DNA of 64,000 bases from Dictyostelium discoideum (GCA_000004695.1 CM000154.2:1856001-1920000), one strand, 5' to 3'. Counted from the first letter of the stretch, positions 22 through 52,946 are shown. Numbers and translations are program-made. The notes: generated from the sequence alone by a model not told the origin.

Positions 22-2627
22 TTAAACAAACAAAATAATTAAAATTAAAAATAAAACAAGAGAAAATAATTGGCAAAATTTAAAATTATTAGAGTGATTA
101 TTTTCATCATTTTCGGAATGATTATTATTATTGGTATTGGTTTTATTATTACCATTTGGAATTGGAGTTGTTGATTTTGGATTTACAGAGGGAGATGGAG
201 ATTTAGAAATAAATGGAGACAAAGATGGAGATAAAGATGGAGATAAAGATGGTGATAAAGATGGAGATAAAGATGGTGATAAAGATGCAGACAAAGATGG
301 TGATGGAGAAATTGTTTCAAACGGTGTTTCAGTTTCTGGTGGACTCCATTCAAAAATTGTATCACCAACAGATTGGCCATTTATAGTTACGTTTATGAAT
401 GACTTTGGTTTATCACTTGTAATGGTATCATTTGTTACAATTAATGGTTCTAAAAAACATTCAAGTTTATTAGAATCGAAAACAACTATATCACCACAGT
501 TTCTAGAATCAATTGTAATACTGTTTAATTCATTCTCTGCAAAATTGGTTCCAGTTATTGTAACATTACCACCTTTAATTTGGTCAACTTTTGTAGTGGA
601 TAAAATAGTTGGTGGATTGTATGAAAGGGTTAATGGAGATGGGAGTTGTACATCGTCTACAATTAATATAACTAGATTATTTTTTCCACTACCTTTTGGT
701 GCCATACATTCTAATGTTGTTGGACTGGATATAGAAACAGAGTCACATGACTTTTCACCAACCATTATAGTAATTGTTGATTTACTATCAAAGAAAGAAC
801 CAACAATTGAAACACTACCGCCATCTGTATTTATAGAAGAGATTGATTTGCAAATTGGAAGAATTGAAATTTTGAAACCATTAGAATCACTAGATAAACC
901 ATCAACAACAATAATGGCATTGTTATCAAATTTAGCTGTTTCTGGAAGTGTGAATGATGCTACACCATTTTCAAGTGAATCTGCTTTAATAGCGCCATTG
1001 TTTAAAGTTAATTCCACAAGTGATGCATCAGAACCAAGGTTTCTACCCTTAATCTCTAAAATATTTTCTTTTTGGGTTGGTTCAAGTTCAAATGGTGGTT
1101 GATAACTAAAAGCAATTCTATATGGTTTATGAGTACCAAAAGTTACAACGGCAACCATTTTATTACCAGTACCAGAAGAAAGAGTACATGAAAGTTTTGA
1201 AACATCAATAATTACATCTGTACATTCAATTGGATTGGTTTTACCTGTATTTTCAATTTGAATACTTGGTTTAACACCTGATGGATTCAAATAAAATCCA
1301 GATATTTCAAATGGTCCACCTTCCGTTGGGGCAAGTGTTAATGGTTCAGTTAAAACTGGAGTTGTGGTAAAATCAAGTTTATTTGAAATATCTTTATTAT
1401 TAGAAACAACAAAACTGCCACTGAAAATTTTTGAAGGTAGGGTAAATACCAAAACATTCTGAGCATTATCATCATCAGTTGGACTAATGGTGTTTTCTTG
1501 ATTTTTTTGATCAGTGATAATAATTTTTGAAGTACCCATCGTACCAAGACTTGTTCCTTCAATTGTAAAGTTAGTACCAGTTTGCTTAATATTTAAAATT
1601 TTTGGAATACCATAGGAATATTCTAAAACATTGGAATTGGAAATATTATCAATATTAATTGAAACCTTCAATTTTTTTATTCCACCTTTTGCAGTAGAGT
1701 GTGGTAATTTACAAATAATTTCACTTGAAATTTGGCTAATAATATCACAATGATAAGATCCAATGGTAATAGAGGTTTTTGATGTATCACCTGATGCACC
1801 CTTTAAGCATTTACCAGTTATTGTTACAACACCACCAATCACTGGAACGGAATTTATTGATAAAGGTAAAGGAGTAAACTTTAGTTGAGAAAGAGATGAA
1901 GATAAACCATTCACATCAACTTTAACAGATAAGGATTGGGTTAATTTTGGTTCATAATTAAATACAATTAAATCATTATTAACTGATACAATTGATGAAG
2001 CTGTTAATACTTGACTTCCCAACTCAATCTTTATTAATCTTTTATCAGTGTAAAAATTAGAACCACTTATTTTAAATTGACCATTTGATGATGATTCAAT
2101 TTTATGGATAGACGGGGCAGCAAAATTTAATTTGAAGGTTGAAGTTCCCAATTGAACACTGAATGAACCAGATCCACCCAAGTTTTTAACATTAAATTTA
2201 GTTGCATCTTTTGGAATTGGTGGATCTAAATTTAATTTTTTGGTTTTACCACCAATAATTACATTTAAAGTTTTTACATCATACCCAAATCTCAAAAAAT
2301 TACCAGTTACCAATGATAACCCAGGTTCAGTTGATGGTGTAAATTTCAAATCTCTTGGCGGAGGTATTGGCAAACCAATCATTGGATGCTCAGTTGTTTT
2401 ATCTTTTCCATCCATATATTTCCCATTGAATGTAAGAGTTGAACCAATTAATTTTGTAAAATCTAAATCTTTTGATTTACAAATACAACCATCTTTACCC
2501 TTTCTAGTACATGTAAACAATATTTTTACAGTTGGACAACTCTTATCTGTCAATATAATATTTGTTAAGAATTTATCAACTTTACTTCCAACATATACTA
2601 ATTTCTTTCCTTCAACAGAAACATTAA
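22..2627 (-). CDS. IPT/TIG-repeat cell-surface glycoprotein (Tgr/tiger-like), exon 2 of 2. Ends with a (SPSLSP)n stalk and a hydrophobic C-terminal tail (GPI/TM-like).
   Basis: Long minus ORF with several TIG-like repeats (GxxxTITGxxLxG...SxExxCxLP). Acceptor ...attattag|TT maps at 2628-2629, phase 1. It is a paralogue of the ORF at 3437-5925 (aligned: VSVEGKKLVYVGSKVDKF vs LSVKGKKLIYTGANVDFK). The ORF-track 'M' at 2553 is a TTG. Confidence 0.75.
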
Positions 2628-2717
2628 CTAATAATTTTGAAAAAAAAAAAAAAAAAAATAAATAAATAATTAAATTTACAATAATACTTTAAAATTTAAT
2701 TTACAACAATAACTTAC

Positions 2718-2775
2718 ATCCAGCCTTAATTAAATTAAAAAAAGATATAATTACCAATAAATATAGTATTTTCAT
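2718..2775 (-). CDS. Exon 1 (signal peptide MKILYLLVIISFFNLIKAG) of the IPT/TIG glycoprotein gene at 22-2627.
   Basis: ATG at 2775-2773, a hydrophobic leader, then donor GTAAGT at 2717-2712 (phase 1). It joins in frame to the acceptor at 2628-2629 and gives ...AG|F|NVSVEGKK. Confidence 0.6.
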
Positions 2776-3436
2776 TTTATTAATTAAAAAAAAAAAAAAA
2801 AAAAAATTAAATTCTATAAATATAAAAATTTTCATGTACACCAATTTTTTTTTTTTAAAAATTAATAAAGTAATATTAAATAAAATAAAATAAAATTTAA
2901 TAAAATAAAATATTTGATAGATTTAAGGATTGGTTTAAAAAAATACTTGGTAGAAATTAAAGACGAATTGTCCGTTTATTATTTGATATCTTTCTATTGC
3001 CATTTTCAATTTATCATATTAAATTTTAAAATATAAACAAATTCTGCATTTTTCTGAAAAATAATATGTTTACCTCATCTTTTATTCATTTATTATTGTC
3101 AAAAAAAAAAAAAAAAAATAAAAAAAAATAAAAAAAAAAAACTACCACTAACCACTAATTAAAGAAATATTTTTTTTCATAATCTTAATTAAGATTATAT
3201 GAGTTTTTATTTATTTACATCTTTATATAATATTTTATAATATCATTTTATATATATATATTTTATTATTATCATTATCATTATTATTATTTTTATTATT
3301 ATTATTATTTTTTTTTTTTATTTTTTTTTTTATTTTTTATTTTTTTATTATTATTATCTTTATTATTATTGTTAGATTTTTTTTTTATTTTTTTTTTTTT
3401 TTTTATTTTTTTTTTTATTTTTTTTTTTGGTTATTT

Positions 3437-5925
3437 TTAAATTATTTGGATTAGTAATAATAATGAGAAAATTAAAATTAATGAATTAGAAATTTTAGAA
3501 GAACTATTTTCAATGTGTTTATCTATTGGAGATGTTGTTGGTTTTTCAGTTGGTTTTTCAGTTGGTTTTTCAGTTGGTTTTATAGTTGGTGCTAATGTTG
3601 GTTTAGGAGTTTCAGTATTGAGTGCTTCATTATCATATTCAAATACTTCACCATTAGCAGATTGACCATTTACAGTAACATTTACGGCCAATTTCTTATT
3701 TGTTAATGAAGGATCTATTGTTGATTTTGAAATTGAACAAGTAAGTTTGGTTGAATCTATTACAGAAACATCTTCACATGATTTACTTCCAACATTTACT
3801 GTAATCAAAGTATTTTCAAAATTGGTACCATAAATAGTAACTTGACCACCTTCAACTTGTTTTACACTTGTTGATGACATAATGGTTGGTGGACTATAAT
3901 CTAAAAACAATGGTGGTGATAATTTTGATTCAGCATCTTTAACCATGAATGAAACAGCATTTTTAATACCACTTCCTGGTGGAGCAGAGCAAGTAAGTGT
4001 TTGGGTATCTACAATAGTCAAAGAATCACATGAATGATTTCCAACCATAATTTTCAAACCAGTGTCCTTTTTATTAAAGAATGAACCTTTAATTGTCACA
4101 GTTGATCCAGAGGTTTGTGATTGAGTAATTGATTTGACAACTGGTTGAAGCTCGACATCAAGTTGGTCAGAGTCTGAGTTTTTAATACCATCAACTGAAA
4201 TGGTGGCATATGAATCACTCAATAATGTACTTGGCAAATCGAATGAAACAGTACCATTTTCAAGAGAGGAAGCTAACAGTTCGTTTCCGTTCATGTCTAA
4301 CTTTATATATTTTGAATTTGGACCAAGGTTTTTGCCACTAATTTGTAATTTATTATCAGACATTTGTTTTGCGACTAAAGAACTTGGGGATTGGTAGTTA
4401 AAATCTAGTGGAATTGAGTTTTCACCAATAACAATTGTAGATTTAATTGAACCACATCCTGGTGCAAGTTTACAAGTAGCAGATGATGAATCTGGACTAA
4501 TTAAGAAATCTGAACAATCAACACTTTGATTTCTTGCATCCAAAAGGGAAATAGTTGCTTTTGCTTTTGAATCAAGATAACCACCGATGAAATTAATTTC
4601 TTGACCATCTGTTGATGGGAGAGCTTTTAAATTAGAAATAAATGGTGTTGGTGTGACATCAAAATTATTTGAAGTATCTTGACCATCATAGACTGTAACT
4701 GCACTCTTTGATGAGTTTGTTGGTAAGTTAAATGTTAAATAAGATTCCTTTTCATCATCAAAACCTACAACAGAAAGGTCAAATGGGGTTGGAGAGCCAC
4801 CTGTTGCAACACGAATAACTGAATCGGTTTTACCCAAGTTTGAACCGGTAATAGTGAATAAAGATGCTCCTGGTTTTTGGTCAATTTTGGTAATTTGTGG
4901 TATTCCATAAGAGTATAATAATTGATTGGTATTTTTAATACCATCTATAGTAATAACAACTTTTAGATCCTTTGAACCATTCTCTTTTGAAGCAGGTGGT
5001 AATTGACACATTATTTCTGTTGATATTTGAGCACCAACAACAGCACATGTGTATGCACCTACTAAAACAGATGTAACAGATGGACCAGATCCTTTTAAGC
5101 ATTTACCAGAGATAGTGATTAGACCACCAGTTCCTTTAGAAACAGATTTATCAATTGCTTGAGGATATGAAGGGATTGTAACATAATAAGCAGCAGTTTG
5201 GGAATTACCACCGACAGTAATAAGTAACGATGAGTTTGAAGAATATTTTGAATCATAGTCAATTAAAATTTTTGATGTATCACTTGAAGTAATTGAAGCA
5301 CTAAGATCATCCTCACCCAATTTTACACTGATAACCTTTTTATCGATCCAAAAGTTTTGACCACTGATTGAAATTTGATTATTTGTAATTGCCACTGCGG
5401 AAACAACTGGTCTAGAAAAGTTTACCGGAAAACTCATAGAACCAAATGTAACTTTCATTGAACCATAACCACCTGGACTTTTAACCATTATTTTGGTTGC
5501 GTCAGTATTTGATGAAACACCCAATGACACTGGTTTTGAATTGTAAACACCAGGAAGAGTTGTAACATCTTCACCAAATAATAAGAAATCTCCAGTCATA
5601 AGAGCAGCTGTACCAGCCATTGTTGGTGGTTCCCATTTAACCTCAGTTGGTAATGGTAGTGGAATTTGATTGGCTTTAATATCATAGGCAATTACTATAT
5701 TTGGGGTTTTTAAATTTGCTCCCCTTAGAGTTAATTTTCCAGCTAATTTTGTAAAGTCCATATCCATACTCGTACAAACAGGGCTATTGGCAGATGGAAT
5801 TTCACAAGTGAATGTAATTGAGTAATCTGGTAATATTTTTTGGGAAGTTAACAAAATTTCAGTAATTTTGAAATCTACATTGGCACCAGTATATATTAAC
5901 TTTTTTCCTTTAACAGATAAAGTAT
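3437..5925 (-). CDS. IPT/TIG-repeat cell-surface glycoprotein (Tgr/tiger-like paralogue), exon 2 of 2. Has a (PTEK)n stalk and a hydrophobic C-terminal tail.
   Basis: Minus ORF with classic TIG repeats (e.g. GGLITISGKCLKG...YTCAVV...STEIMCQLPP). The open frame extends upstream of the TTG shown as 'M' at 5854, to acceptor aaaaaaag|AT at 5926-5927. Confidence 0.75.
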
Positions 5926-6080
5926 CTTTTTTTAAATGTTTAAAAAATATATTAAAAAAAAAAAAAAAAAAATTATTAGTAATCTATTTTTAATCTATTT
6001 TTTTTTTTTTTTTTTATTATTATATTTAAATTTTTTTATTTATTTTATTTTTTAATATTATTTTTTGATTTAAAACTTAC

Positions 6081-6153
6081 AACCAGCATCAACAATATTA
6101 AATATTGTTAGTGATAGAATAAAAAATAAAAATAAAATTTTATTTATTAACAT
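6081..6153 (-). CDS. Exon 1 (signal peptide MLINKILFLFFILSLTIFNIVDAG) of the IPT/TIG glycoprotein gene at 3437-5925.
   Basis: ATG at 6153, a hydrophobic leader, then donor GTAAGT at 6080-6075 (phase 1). It joins the acceptor at 5926-5927 and gives ...DAG|Y|TLSVKGKK, parallel to its paralogue. Confidence 0.6.
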
Positions 6154-8936: not shown

Positions 8937-9326
8937 ATGGTTCTAGGGGATAATGAAAACACAATTGTTAGTTCCAAGCTAATTTTAACAACATTGACAA
9001 CAAAATTAATTAGTAGATACTTTAAGAAAGAATTTAAATTTAGTTATTTTATTTACTGTTTAGTTTATATTATTGGTAAAAATATAAAATTTTTTAGAAG
9101 GGATCCAGATAAAAAACCATCAATTTTAAAGATGAATTTTCTACTATTGTTTGTCTTTTCAAATGTGCTCTCTGGGGTTTATTATTTGTATCAAGATTGT
9201 AATGAAATTTTTTCAAAAAACAATGACCCTGATTTATATTTAATTGGATTGATATTACTTATTTTTCAAGATGATAGTTTTCCACATGTTTTTATTCATA
9301 TTACTGATCTTTATTTAAATATTACT
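8937..9326 (+). CDS. Small multi-pass membrane protein, copy 2, exon 1.
   Basis: ORF MVLGDNENTIVSSKLILTT... is paralogous to 7605-7994. Donor ...NIT|GTAAGT. Confidence 0.6.
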
Positions 9327-9401
9327 GTAAGTATAATATAAAAAAAAAAAAAAAAAAAAAAAAAAACACAAAAACTAATAATTCTTTATTATTATATTTA
9401 G

Positions 9402-9623
9402 AAATTTATTGAAATTAGAAAACAAAGAAAAAAAGAAAAAAAATTAAATAAAAAGGCAGAGATGCACAAAAAATTACAAAAAAAACCATTTGAAAAAGAT
9501 TTGGACGGTGCTGGTGGAGATGATAGTGGTGAAGATGACTATTTTGAAGAAATAATGTGTGTAAATAAAGGTGAAAAAGAAGAATATTATGAAAGTAGAA
9601 AATTAAAACAAAAAAAAAATTAA
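9402..9623 (+). CDS. Small membrane protein, copy 2, exon 2 (acidic tail).
   Basis: Acceptor ttag at 9400-9401. Reads KFIEIRKQRKK...KKPFEKDLDGAGGDDSGEDDYFEEIMCVNKGEKEEYYESRKLKQKKN*. Confidence 0.55.
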   Translation, partial: KFIEIRKQRKKEKKLNKKAEMHKKLQKKPFEKDLDGAGGDDSGEDDYFEEIMCVNKGEKEEYYESRKLKQKKN

Positions 9624-25181: not shown

Positions 25182-25197
25182 TTAAACTAAAACTTAC

Positions 25198-26869
<1,672 letters not shown>

Positions 26870-36915: not shown

Positions 36916-37557
36916 ATGCATGTGTTAAATTTATTATTTTTAATAGTAATAATTAATATTTTAATTTTTTCTGTACAATCATATACCTTGAAAAAGTATG
37001 ATTATGGTCAGTTTTTAGTTATCGCCAGTGGGCCAGTAATTAATAAAAAATTTAATGTTGCAAATCACCAGGTATCAAACTTTTTACTAACAAAAGATGA
37101 AAATGATTCTAATTCAGTGCAGCTTCGTATCACTTCTGATGGAGCACCAGAATTTTTAATCTTTTACAGTACTTTTAGTGATGAAATTGCAAGTGAAAAA
37201 AATTCAAACAAAACAAATATTACCACTCCATTGGAAGGCTCAATGTGTATCTCTAGTGTCTATTCTTTTTCAATCAAAATGAACAATTACCTCTTGGGTG
37301 GTGATTACATTATCTCAATTCTAGGTAACTCTGATGTTTCAAAATGCTACAAGCATGTCCCAGTAAACCAAGCTAACCAAGAACCTGAAAGTATTGTATT
37401 ACTTTCAACATCTTCTGAACAACTTGTTTTACAATCTGATGGTGAAACAGTCGTTCAAAAAAATATAGAGAATCAAAAATCTACTGCTTCAACACCACTA
37501 GTCAATGGAGTTTTAATTTTTTCAACAGTTCTTTTATTTTTACAATTAATAATCTAA
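36916..37557 (+). CDS. Small secreted/GPI-anchored-type protein (N-terminal signal peptide and C-terminal hydrophobic tail).
   Basis: MHVLNLLFLIVIINILIFSVQS... leader, and the terminal ..LIFSTVLLFLQLII*. Confidence 0.5.
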   Translation: MHVLNLLFLIVIINILIFSVQSYTLKKYDYGQFLVIASGPVINKKFNVANHQVSNFLLTKDENDSNSVQLRITSDGAPEFLIFYSTFSDEIASEKNSNKTNITTPLEGSMCISSVYSFSIKMNNYLLGGDYIISILGNSDVSKCYKHVPVNQANQEPESIVLLSTSSEQLVLQSDGETVVQKNIENQKSTASTPLVNGVLIFSTVLLFLQLII

Positions 37558-51464: not shown

Positions 51465-51509
<45 letters not shown>

Positions 51510-52187
51510 CAACCATCAAATTTTTCATTATCTTCACCAACAACATCACCAACTAATTCACCATCACAAACCCCATCACCTTGTACAACACCAAATATTT
51601 TTCCAACATCAGTCCCACCATTTTCAATTGCGATTTCAGTAACACCTCCATCTACTCGCCCTGCACCAGTGATTCCAAAAGAAAATACTACACCACCAAC
51701 AGAACCACAATGTCTTACTGTTGAATCAGTAAGAGTTTATAGGTACACTCAATCTCAATATCCAATTTCAACATTAGAATTTGAATTGAAACTTGCAAAA
51801 CTCTCTAAACGTTTATGTGTTGCAGTGGCAGCCTCAACTAGAGATGGAGTTATTTATGATGGTAGAACTGTAGAGTTTTTCGCTCACAATAATGGAAAAC
51901 ATAATGCAACTCCAACCTATAAGGGTTGTAAAACTGCAATTTCAAATGCTAGAACAAAATCACCATACTCTTCACCTTCTTCCTCTTCTACTTCCACTTC
52001 CTCCAACTCCACCTCCTCCTCTTCTCCAAATCCATCAAATTCAATTGTACCTGTTGGTAATCTTATCTCTGTGAAATCTGAAAAGAAAAAACCTAGAACT
52101 AGTTCAAATAGTCCAACTACAAGTCCAAATATTAAAAAATCTCAATTAACTAATAAAAATAATAACAATAATAACTGTAATTCTCAC

Positions 52188-52251
<64 letters not shown>

Positions 52252-52274
52252 GTAATAACAACAATAATAATAAT

Positions 52275-52341
<67 letters not shown>

Positions 52342-52401
52342 GTAATAGTAGTAATAACAACAATAATAACAATAATAGTAATAGTAATAATAGTAATAGT
52401 A

Positions 52402-52472
<71 letters not shown>

Positions 52473-52524
52473 TTTCAAAACAATTTTAATCCAAGTAATA
52501 ACTTGATTTCAAACAATTATAATC

Positions 52525-52567
<43 letters not shown>

Positions 52568-52946
52568 AAACCAAGGTAATAATCAAATGAACCATTCATC
52601 TTCTCCAATACCTTTACCTTCAATACCACCCCACATGTCATCAGATTACCAAGAAAACAATCAAATATGGCAAAATAATTATTCTTCCTCTTCTTATATT
52701 AATGAAATACAATCCCATTGGATTCAAGAACAACAAACTAACTTACTTCCACACCCTATGTATATGTCAAATCAATCACATCATCAATTACCTTTTAATA
52801 ATAATAATAATAATAATAACAATATTCATCAACAAACTCATCAGTTACAAAACTTGCACCCACCAATGAATCATCAACAACAAATTCCTTTTCACCAATA
52901 TACTAGTGGGCAACATCATATGAATAATCAAGAAAGTGATTCCTAA
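49500..52946 (+). CDS. N/Q/S/T-rich putative nuclear protein with two conserved globular islands (about 50520-50860 and about 51640-51960).
   Basis: An 1148 aa ORF. Long (AAT)n/(AAC)n tracts are separated by non-repetitive segments (..GPCGIGCVGSGNVFAVVNKIPQLFTP..GVRIDLYHKPRGSKGTWMPILKGDHIRV.. and ..CLTVESVRVYRYTQSQYPISTLEFELKLAKLSKRLCVAVAASTRDGVIYDGRTVEFFAHNNG..). Confidence 0.6.

Follow-up and report, generated by a model that had tools for sequence, protein, structure and literature searches.

Two tandem TIG-repeat surface glycoprotein genes, probably of the Tgr family and predicted to be lipid-anchored, beside gadB on Dictyostelium discoideum chromosome 5

The stretch of the Dictyostelium discoideum genome analysed here (GCA_000004695.1 CM000154.2:1856001-1920000; the whole 64,000 nucleotides are called the window, and positions are counted from its first letter) carries at its start two intact genes arranged in tandem on the minus strand, gene A (22-2775, 887 amino acids, aa) and gene B (3437-6153, 853 aa). 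The genes lie beside gadB on chromosome 5 of AX4 type, and we consider it very probable that they belong to the Dictyostelium Tgr (tiger)/TIG-repeat surface-glycoprotein family, their products being predicted to be lipid-anchored and to have a conserved role in adhesion. A reading made earlier from the sequence alone (the original prediction) had described two same-strand paralogues of roughly 850-890 aa at this site, which agrees with the lengths and strand found here and with an end-to-end protein alignment of 38% identity over 839 aa (E = 2e-153).

Gene models and signal-peptide mini-exons

Each gene consists of a very short first exon, one intron and a long second exon (lengths in nucleotides, nt; GC, guanine plus cytosine):

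2718..2775, minus strand: gene A exon 1, 58 nt; ATG at 2775; signal peptide MKILYLLVIISFFNLIKAG plus the first base of codon 20 (read from the sequence, hydropathy and orthologue junctions)
2628..2717, minus strand: gene A intron, 90 nt, phase 1, GTAAGT...TTATTAG, 9% GC; donor at 2717
22..2627, minus strand: gene A exon 2, stop codon 22..24 included; 76% identity to D. firmibasis KAK5578986
6081..6153, minus strand: gene B exon 1, 73 nt; ATG at 6153; signal peptide MLINKILFLFFILSLTIFNIVDAG plus the first base of codon 25
5926..6080, minus strand: gene B intron, 155 nt, phase 1, GTAAGT...AAAAAAG, 5% GC; donor at 6080
3437..5925, minus strand: gene B exon 2, stop codon 3437..3439 included; 80% full-length identity to D. 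citrinum KAN0024488

The GC content is ~22% in the window and ~30% in the coding stretches; at this composition, open reading frames (ORFs) longer than 800 codons are not due to chance. The ORF listing of the window contains only 22..2553 and 3437..5854 for the two genes, both started at TTG and lacking the first exons, an omission that the original prediction had already pointed out when it proposed first exons of 58-73 nt encoding only a signal peptide and followed by a phase-1 GTAAGT intron. The models obtained here, with first exons of 58 nt in A and 73 nt in B and with the same junctions in the orthologues, bear this proposal out. When the minus strand is read upstream of each ORF, an ATG-started hydrophobic peptide is found that ends in ...AG and is followed by one base and then by GTAAGT. 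In gene B, the acceptor AAAAAAAG/AT is the sole acceptor without an in-frame stop, and it yields the junction AG/YTLSVKGKK of the D. citrinum protein P0003 (the slash marks the splice junction).

The orthologues start, as annotated, with MKILYILLVIICILNLVKAGF... and MLINRILVLFFILSLTIFKIVDAGY..., their junctions are identical to those of the A and B models, and the ...AG/F and ...AG/Y junctions are also those of the annotated proteins P0001 of D. firmibasis and P0003 of D. citrinum. In genomic DNA, exon 1 measures 61 nt in both gene A orthologues and 73 nt in the gene B orthologues and in a D. purpureum relative; the introns of all of them are in phase 1, with GTAAGT, GTACGT or GTATGT donors, lengths of 77-230 nt and unrelated sequences, the gene A orthologues keeping the position of the intron but not its sequence or length (77 and 230 nt). 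In these genomic comparisons the splice models of A and B are backed by conservation across species, beyond a match to the splice consensus.

The same layout of a signal-peptide exon and a phase-1 intron was found in a TgrO1-like gene of another Dictyostelium assembly (76 nt) and in a relative in GCA_000203815 (70 nt), an assembly that we take to be Cavenderia fasciculata, and was absent in the Tieghemostelium lacteum relative examined, the splicing of which was confirmed by a transcript contig. Judged from this distribution, the mini-exon is an old, family-wide ancestral trait. Since it also occurs in the TgrO1-like gene, in D. purpureum and in the GCA_000203815 relative, it supports the gene models and not specifically a duplication that gave rise to A and B. 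The shared exon structure had initially been put forward as the sign of such a duplication; the duplication itself stands on the phylogenetic tree described below, and the argument from exon structure is weak. The signal-peptide mini-exon is also a family-wide trap in ORF-based gene finding.

Ectodomain, stalk and C-terminal tail

The proteins encoded by both genes have the same order of parts, from a set of immunoglobulin (Ig)-like units to a repeat stalk and a terminal hydrophobic stretch (HMM, hidden Markov model; AF2, AlphaFold2; TRF, Tandem Repeats Finder; GPI, glycosylphosphatidylinositol):

331..2118, minus strand: gene A, seven tandem IPT/TIG-like Ig units, aa 190-785 (Pfam TIG, internal-repeat HMMs, AF2 model, structure matches)
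213..304, minus strand: gene A stalk, 12-nt tandem repeat, 7.7 copies, encoding (SLSP)n (TRF and translation)
25..78, minus strand: gene A C-terminal hydrophobic tail, FCQLFSLVLFLILIILFV, no residues beyond; GPI-signal-like (hydropathy and relatives)
3620..5413, minus strand: gene B, seven tandem IPT/TIG-like Ig units, aa 196-793 (Pfam TIG, internal-repeat HMMs)
4427..4621, minus strand: gene B, TgrO1-like Ig domain, aa 460-524 (Pfam PF24612)
3537..3590, minus strand: gene B stalk, 12-nt tandem repeat, 4.5 copies, encoding (KPTE)n, that is (KPTE)3 plus degenerate copies (TRF)
3440..3484, minus strand: gene B C-terminal hydrophobic tail, SLILIFSLLLLIQII, no residues beyond, ENSSS before it; GPI-signal-like

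The build from IPT/TIG repeats, anticipated from the sequence alone, was confirmed by Pfam TIG (PF01833), which matched five stretches of gene A (2.6e-30) and four of gene B (8.6e-34). In addition, gene B matched Pfam Ig_TgrO1 (PF24612) with 39.5 bits (E = 6.4e-10), above the gathering cut-off of 27.9, and this domain was also matched by 19 of the 29 aligned relatives. Internal-repeat HMMs, with profiles taken from the three best-defined units, delimited the units of gene A at aa 190-271, 271-358, 360-440, 442-528, 536-607, 609-689 and 690-785, five of them being clear and two (the third and the fifth) weak. The AF2 model of gene A (residues 21-787, 29-sequence alignment) was all-beta, with a mean predicted local distance difference test score (pLDDT) of 86.8, and the N-terminal region of ~170 aa ahead of the TIG units (aa 20-190) formed a beta-sandwich in it; a stand-alone model of this region was of low confidence and matched generic Ig-like folds only. 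The ectodomain consists, in this description, of the ~170-aa N-terminal region and seven TIG-like units, about nine beta-sandwiches in total.

By fold, the closest solved structures were the ectodomains of plexins A1, A4 and A2 and the IPT regions of MET, and by sequence profile they were plexin-A1 (1.8e-14) and MET (1.7e-12), the Foldseek alignments having a sequence identity of ~10% overall and of 20% to the plexin A1 IPT3-6 fragment. The animal plexins and MET likewise carry strings of Ig-like IPT domains in a cell-surface ectodomain, whereas Sema and PSI domains are absent from A and B, as is a cytoplasmic kinase or GAP domain.

Hydropathy revealed only two hydrophobic segments in each protein, one at the N-terminus and one in the last 15-18 residues, the latter corresponding to the hydrophobic tail noticed earlier. 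The putative signal peptides are hydrophobic, with A at -1 and I or V at -3, features that are kept in six orthologues (heuristic test). The stalks had been read as (SPSLSP)6 in one gene and (PTEK)3 in the other; the latter was right, and the former is in fact the tetrapeptide SLSP in ~7 copies (TRF). The stalks of the gene A orthologues are rich in S, P and T with a different repeat pattern, and KPT[ES] repeats also occur in the stalks of the gene B orthologues of D. citrinum and D. firmibasis.

A 323-aa ORF on the plus strand (131..1102) runs antisense to the 3' part of gene A and reads the (SLSP)n stretch as (DKDG)n. Most likely it is no gene and arises from the strong codon bias of the sense strand.

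With regard to the C-terminus, A and B end in ...NHSNNFKFCQLFSLVLFLILIILFV and ...ENSSSKISNSLILIFSLLLLIQII, a pattern that is kept in the orthologues (as a sequence pattern only). There are no residues after the hydrophobic tail in A and B of D. discoideum, 0-2 in P0001 and none in P0003, P0004 and P0084. Most relatives end differently, as 20 of 27 have a KWLIPAI-type helix followed by 10-33 basic residues (KRHKK tails), a fraction that becomes 19 of 22 outside the A/B group and its sister group, and this agrees with a published account in which TgrC1 crosses the membrane once and has a short tail in the cytoplasm (PMC4404348). The proteins ending without such a tail are the A and B orthologues, the D. 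purpureum gene and one TgrO1-like protein (P0084), and in these tail-less proteins small residues (NSS, HSN) stand 5-8 positions upstream of the terminal stretch. A transmembrane segment with a cytoplasmic tail was not found in A or B by hydropathy and comparison with the relatives. It has been reported that the Tgr family includes members without a transmembrane domain, such as tgrB2 (10.1101/2025.10.22.684067), and the missing segment alone therefore does not exclude A and B from the family.

Taken together, these features suggest that A and B end in a peptide patterned like a GPI attachment signal and that both proteins would be held by a lipid anchor. The other possibility is that they are type I membrane proteins in which the terminal stretch stays as a transmembrane anchor without a cytoplasmic tail and is not replaced by GPI. 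The Tgr family is defined as transmembrane (10.1101/2025.10.22.684067), and the terminal stretch comprises 15-18 hydrophobic residues, both of which would suit such an anchor; the 0-2 residues after the stretch, the lack of a basic stop-transfer flank, the absence from A and B of the KWLIPAI...KRHKK pattern of the true transmembrane relatives, and the NSS and HSN residues 5-8 positions upstream, as expected of an omega site, argue against it, and we regard a retained transmembrane anchor as possible and rather unlikely. GPI-signal-like C-termini instead of transmembrane anchors would change how A and B could signal.

A comparable arrangement is found in the adhesion glycoprotein csA and in PsA, in which a repeat-containing stalk rich in S, T and P is likewise followed by a terminal hydrophobic signal; the ectodomains are unrelated, A and B are much larger, and their anchor and glycosylation are predicted only. 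PsA reportedly has O-glycosylated tandem repeats that vary in copy number (Gooley 1992, as cited in PMC2119896). The lipid anchor of csA is ceramide-based and is directed by the last 25 residues of the protein (PMC2119896), whereas the anchor of A and B is predicted.

Orthologues, duplication and selection

A HMMER scan of 1.84 billion cluster representatives with gene A as the query gave as top matches D. firmibasis KAK5578986 (76% identity, 878 aa), D. citrinum KAN0024488 (40%) and D. purpureum XP_003284698 (35%), all three annotated merely as hypothetical or IPT/TIG-domain proteins; KAN0024488, with its 80% identity over the full length, is the gene B orthologue of D. citrinum. The genes for Sec1, a choline-transporter-like protein, glutamate decarboxylase, B and A follow one another in this order in both D. 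firmibasis and D. citrinum, with B and A on the same strand, which matches the window; A and B have 1:1 syntenic orthologues in these two species and a co-orthologue in D. purpureum. The syntenic site of D. purpureum holds Sec1, the choline-transporter-like gene and then one TIG/TgrO1-like gene of 855 aa, and tblastn found no second copy within 10 kb on either side of it.

A neighbour-joining (NJ) tree of 43 family members (100 bootstraps) had the topology (Dpur,(A clade, B clade)); the A clade and the B clade were each recovered in 97-99 of the 100 replicates, their grouping (A+B) in 84 and A+B+Dpur in 99. By this phylogeny A and B are paralogues that arose by tandem duplication, and the single copy at the syntenic site of D. 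purpureum, together with the tree, places the duplication after the split from D. purpureum and, given the orthologues, before the divergence of D. discoideum, D. citrinum and D. firmibasis. The possibility that the two genes had recently exchanged sequence by gene conversion was also considered and rejected, since they share no long tracts of high identity. As a separate observation, gadB is present at the syntenic position in D. discoideum, D. citrinum and D. firmibasis, and the D. purpureum locus (GL870969, 7759..10001) has no annotated glutamate decarboxylase between the choline-transporter-like and Tgr genes.

The ratio of non-synonymous to synonymous substitutions (dN/dS), computed pairwise for three species pairs, was 0.23-0.28 for A and B and 0.04-0.08 for gadB, and the highest value in any 100-codon window was 0.37 (D. 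discoideum-D. citrinum comparison). Nei-Gojobori (NG86) values are quoted because the YN00 dS was saturated or undefined in several pairs. These ratios indicate that A and B evolve faster than their housekeeping neighbour gadB and are nevertheless under net purifying selection. Among the tgr genes, tgrF, G, L, M, N, P, Q, R, S and T have been described as single-copy, syntenic and comparatively static, and tgrAHIO, tgrBEJ and tgrCDK as the rapidly duplicating groups (PMC12745789); the behaviour of A and B fits the slow single-copy syntenic class, unlike that of the three rapidly duplicating groups.

The TgrO1-like/tgrAHIO group is the sister group of the clade of A, B and D. purpureum in the NJ tree, with an identity to A and B of only ~22-25%. 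It shares with them the signal-peptide mini-exon and phase-1 intron, the TIG repeats, the TgrO1-like Ig domain and the same-strand gene arrangement, and one representative, P0084, ends in the same kind of hydrophobic tail without cytoplasmic residues. Whereas A and B each occur once per lineage and at syntenic sites, the tgrAHIO genes are described as duplicating prolifically and changing their place in the genome (PMC12745789). An example of the prolific tgrA/O-type duplication is a locus of another Dictyostelium species (L004, Dictyostelium sp. GCA_054859235, 1..14645) with three same-strand TgrO1-like genes of 845-855 aa within 15 kb and unrelated small genes between them, the examined copy having a 76-nt signal-peptide exon and a GPI-like tail.

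The pair TgrB1/TgrC1 can be likened to A and B by description, since both pairs encode secreted TIG/IPT-repeat surface glycoproteins of ~850-900 aa from adjacent, diverged genes. The tgrB1 and tgrC1 genes, however, stand head-to-head with one shared promoter and are hyper-polymorphic and restricted to the discoideum clade (PMC12745789; 10.1101/2025.10.22.684067), whereas A and B share one strand, an arrangement that D. citrinum and D. firmibasis also have, and are conserved, tail-less and subject to purifying selection. Moreover, a function in kin or allorecognition has been documented only for tgrB1/tgrC1 (10.1101/2025.10.22.684067; PMC12745789).

The original prediction had matched the pair to the Tgr family as mediator of kin/allorecognition, which implied such a role; membership is upheld by Pfam TIG and Ig_TgrO1, and the recognition role is not upheld by the data. 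As a second ligand-receptor pair of the TgrB1/TgrC1 type, A and B would be paralogues binding in trans, with allelic variation setting the compatibility of strains. They are both TIG-repeat surface proteins of the Tgr family, they are adjacent and diverged (38%), as tgr partners often are (10.1101/2025.10.22.684067), and their non-synonymous evolution is ~4x that of gadB. Nevertheless, the stop of B lies 660 base pairs upstream of the start of A on the same strand, with no shared divergent promoter; the 1:1 syntenic orthologues follow the pattern of the slow single-copy tgr subfamilies and not of tgrBEJ/CDK (PMC12745789); dN/dS between species is 0.23-0.28 with no 100-codon window above 0.4; and both proteins lack the cytoplasmic domain that mediates intracellular signalling in Tgr proteins (PMC12745789). 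A second recognition pair thus appears improbable, and A and B should not be read as kin-recognition genes by analogy.

The reading that we prefer is that of two conserved, lipid-anchored surface proteins with a likely part in adhesion. The signal peptide on its own mini-exon would send A and B into the secretory pathway, and an all-beta ectodomain, made of the N-terminal region and seven IPT/TIG-like Ig units, would be displayed on a Ser/Pro/Thr-rich tetrapeptide-repeat stalk that is probably O-glycosylated. The terminal hydrophobic peptide would be exchanged for a GPI-type lipid anchor, in a csA-like manner, instead of forming the transmembrane helix with a basic tail of most relatives, including TgrC1. 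Since the duplication, both copies have stayed in place under purifying selection. Most likely the two proteins would serve a conserved cell-cell or cell-matrix adhesion, or the display of a ligand, in multicellular development; by themselves they would have no transmembrane signalling and would not be strain-specific determinants of kin recognition.

Some observations weigh against this reading. The Ig_TgrO1 score of gene A is 24.5 bits, under the cut-off of 27.9, and the anchor is proposed from hydropathy and from the small residues (NSS/HSN) upstream of the tail. Besides, the exact spliced A and B proteins had no match in a collection of 15 billion proteins that does contain three neighbouring AX4 proteins, so that the deposited AX4 models of A and B may differ from the present ones or be absent or not indexed. 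The same lack of a match would suit one or both genes being decaying duplicates, as would the reports that 26 of the 64 tgr loci in AX4 are pseudogenes (PMC12745789) and that tgr genes are mostly weakly expressed (10.1101/2025.10.22.684067). The D. discoideum frames nonetheless stay open over 853-887 codons, those of the D. citrinum and D. firmibasis orthologues are intact too, the splice sites and phase are conserved, and dN/dS is far under 1 in all pairwise comparisons, which makes decay the least probable of the explanations weighed here.

As a speculative extension of the lipid-anchored adhesion reading, to which we attach limited credence, A, B, the D. purpureum gene and some TgrO1-like proteins might form a conserved lipid-anchored branch of the Tgr family, in which a glycosylated repeat stalk and a GPI signal took the place of the ancestral transmembrane helix with its basic tail, and joint action, for instance in heterophilic adhesion or as membrane-tethered ligands of transmembrane Tgr receptors, might have kept the paralogues adjacent.

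Overall, A and B are ordinary, already catalogued biology. The sequence is that of the reference genome of D. discoideum, several catalogues of the Tgr family exist, the latest of them covering 12 genomes (PMC12745789), and the finding has little import beyond bookkeeping. As to names, tgrN1 was considered and ruled out, being DDB_G0272736 and located elsewhere. The names tgrM1 and tgrM2 are an unverified guess that follows only from literature statements of a D. purpureum orthologue, made for tgrM2 (PMC3188802) and for tgrM (PMC12745789).

Other genes of the window

The adjacent glutamate decarboxylase gene is gadB, DDB_G0288715 (supplement of PMC6198379), and scfd1 is DDB_G0288719. The three neighbouring single-exon ORFs with exact AX4 protein matches are Q54II4, DDB_G0288745 and DDB_G0288735. 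ARAGORN found no tRNA genes in the whole 64-kb window. The remaining observations concern the following features:

8937..9341 and 9462..9623, plus strand: small two-exon gene (MVLGDNENTIV...), just upstream of gadB
14152..14314, minus strand: U1 spliceosomal small nuclear RNA gene (Rfam RF00003, 76.7 bits, E = 3e-17, full-length model), between the choline-transporter-like gene and scfd1
36916..37557, plus strand: DDB_G0288745 (213 aa), with a signal-peptide-like N-terminus and a hydrophobic end (...LIFSTVLLFLQLII) without cytoplasmic residues
23264..24634, minus strand; 25187..26869, minus strand; 49500..52946, plus strand: long ORFs

The small two-exon gene has no annotated counterpart at the D. 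firmibasis site, and in D. citrinum a homologous annotated gene of 192 aa occupies the same position (tblastx 37% over 123 aa). From its two ends, DDB_G0288745 is another candidate lipid-anchored surface protein. The three long ORFs consist mostly of poly-Asn/poly-Gln tracts, typical of D. discoideum, and an overlapping same-strand ORF in another frame at 51187..51642 is a repeat artefact.

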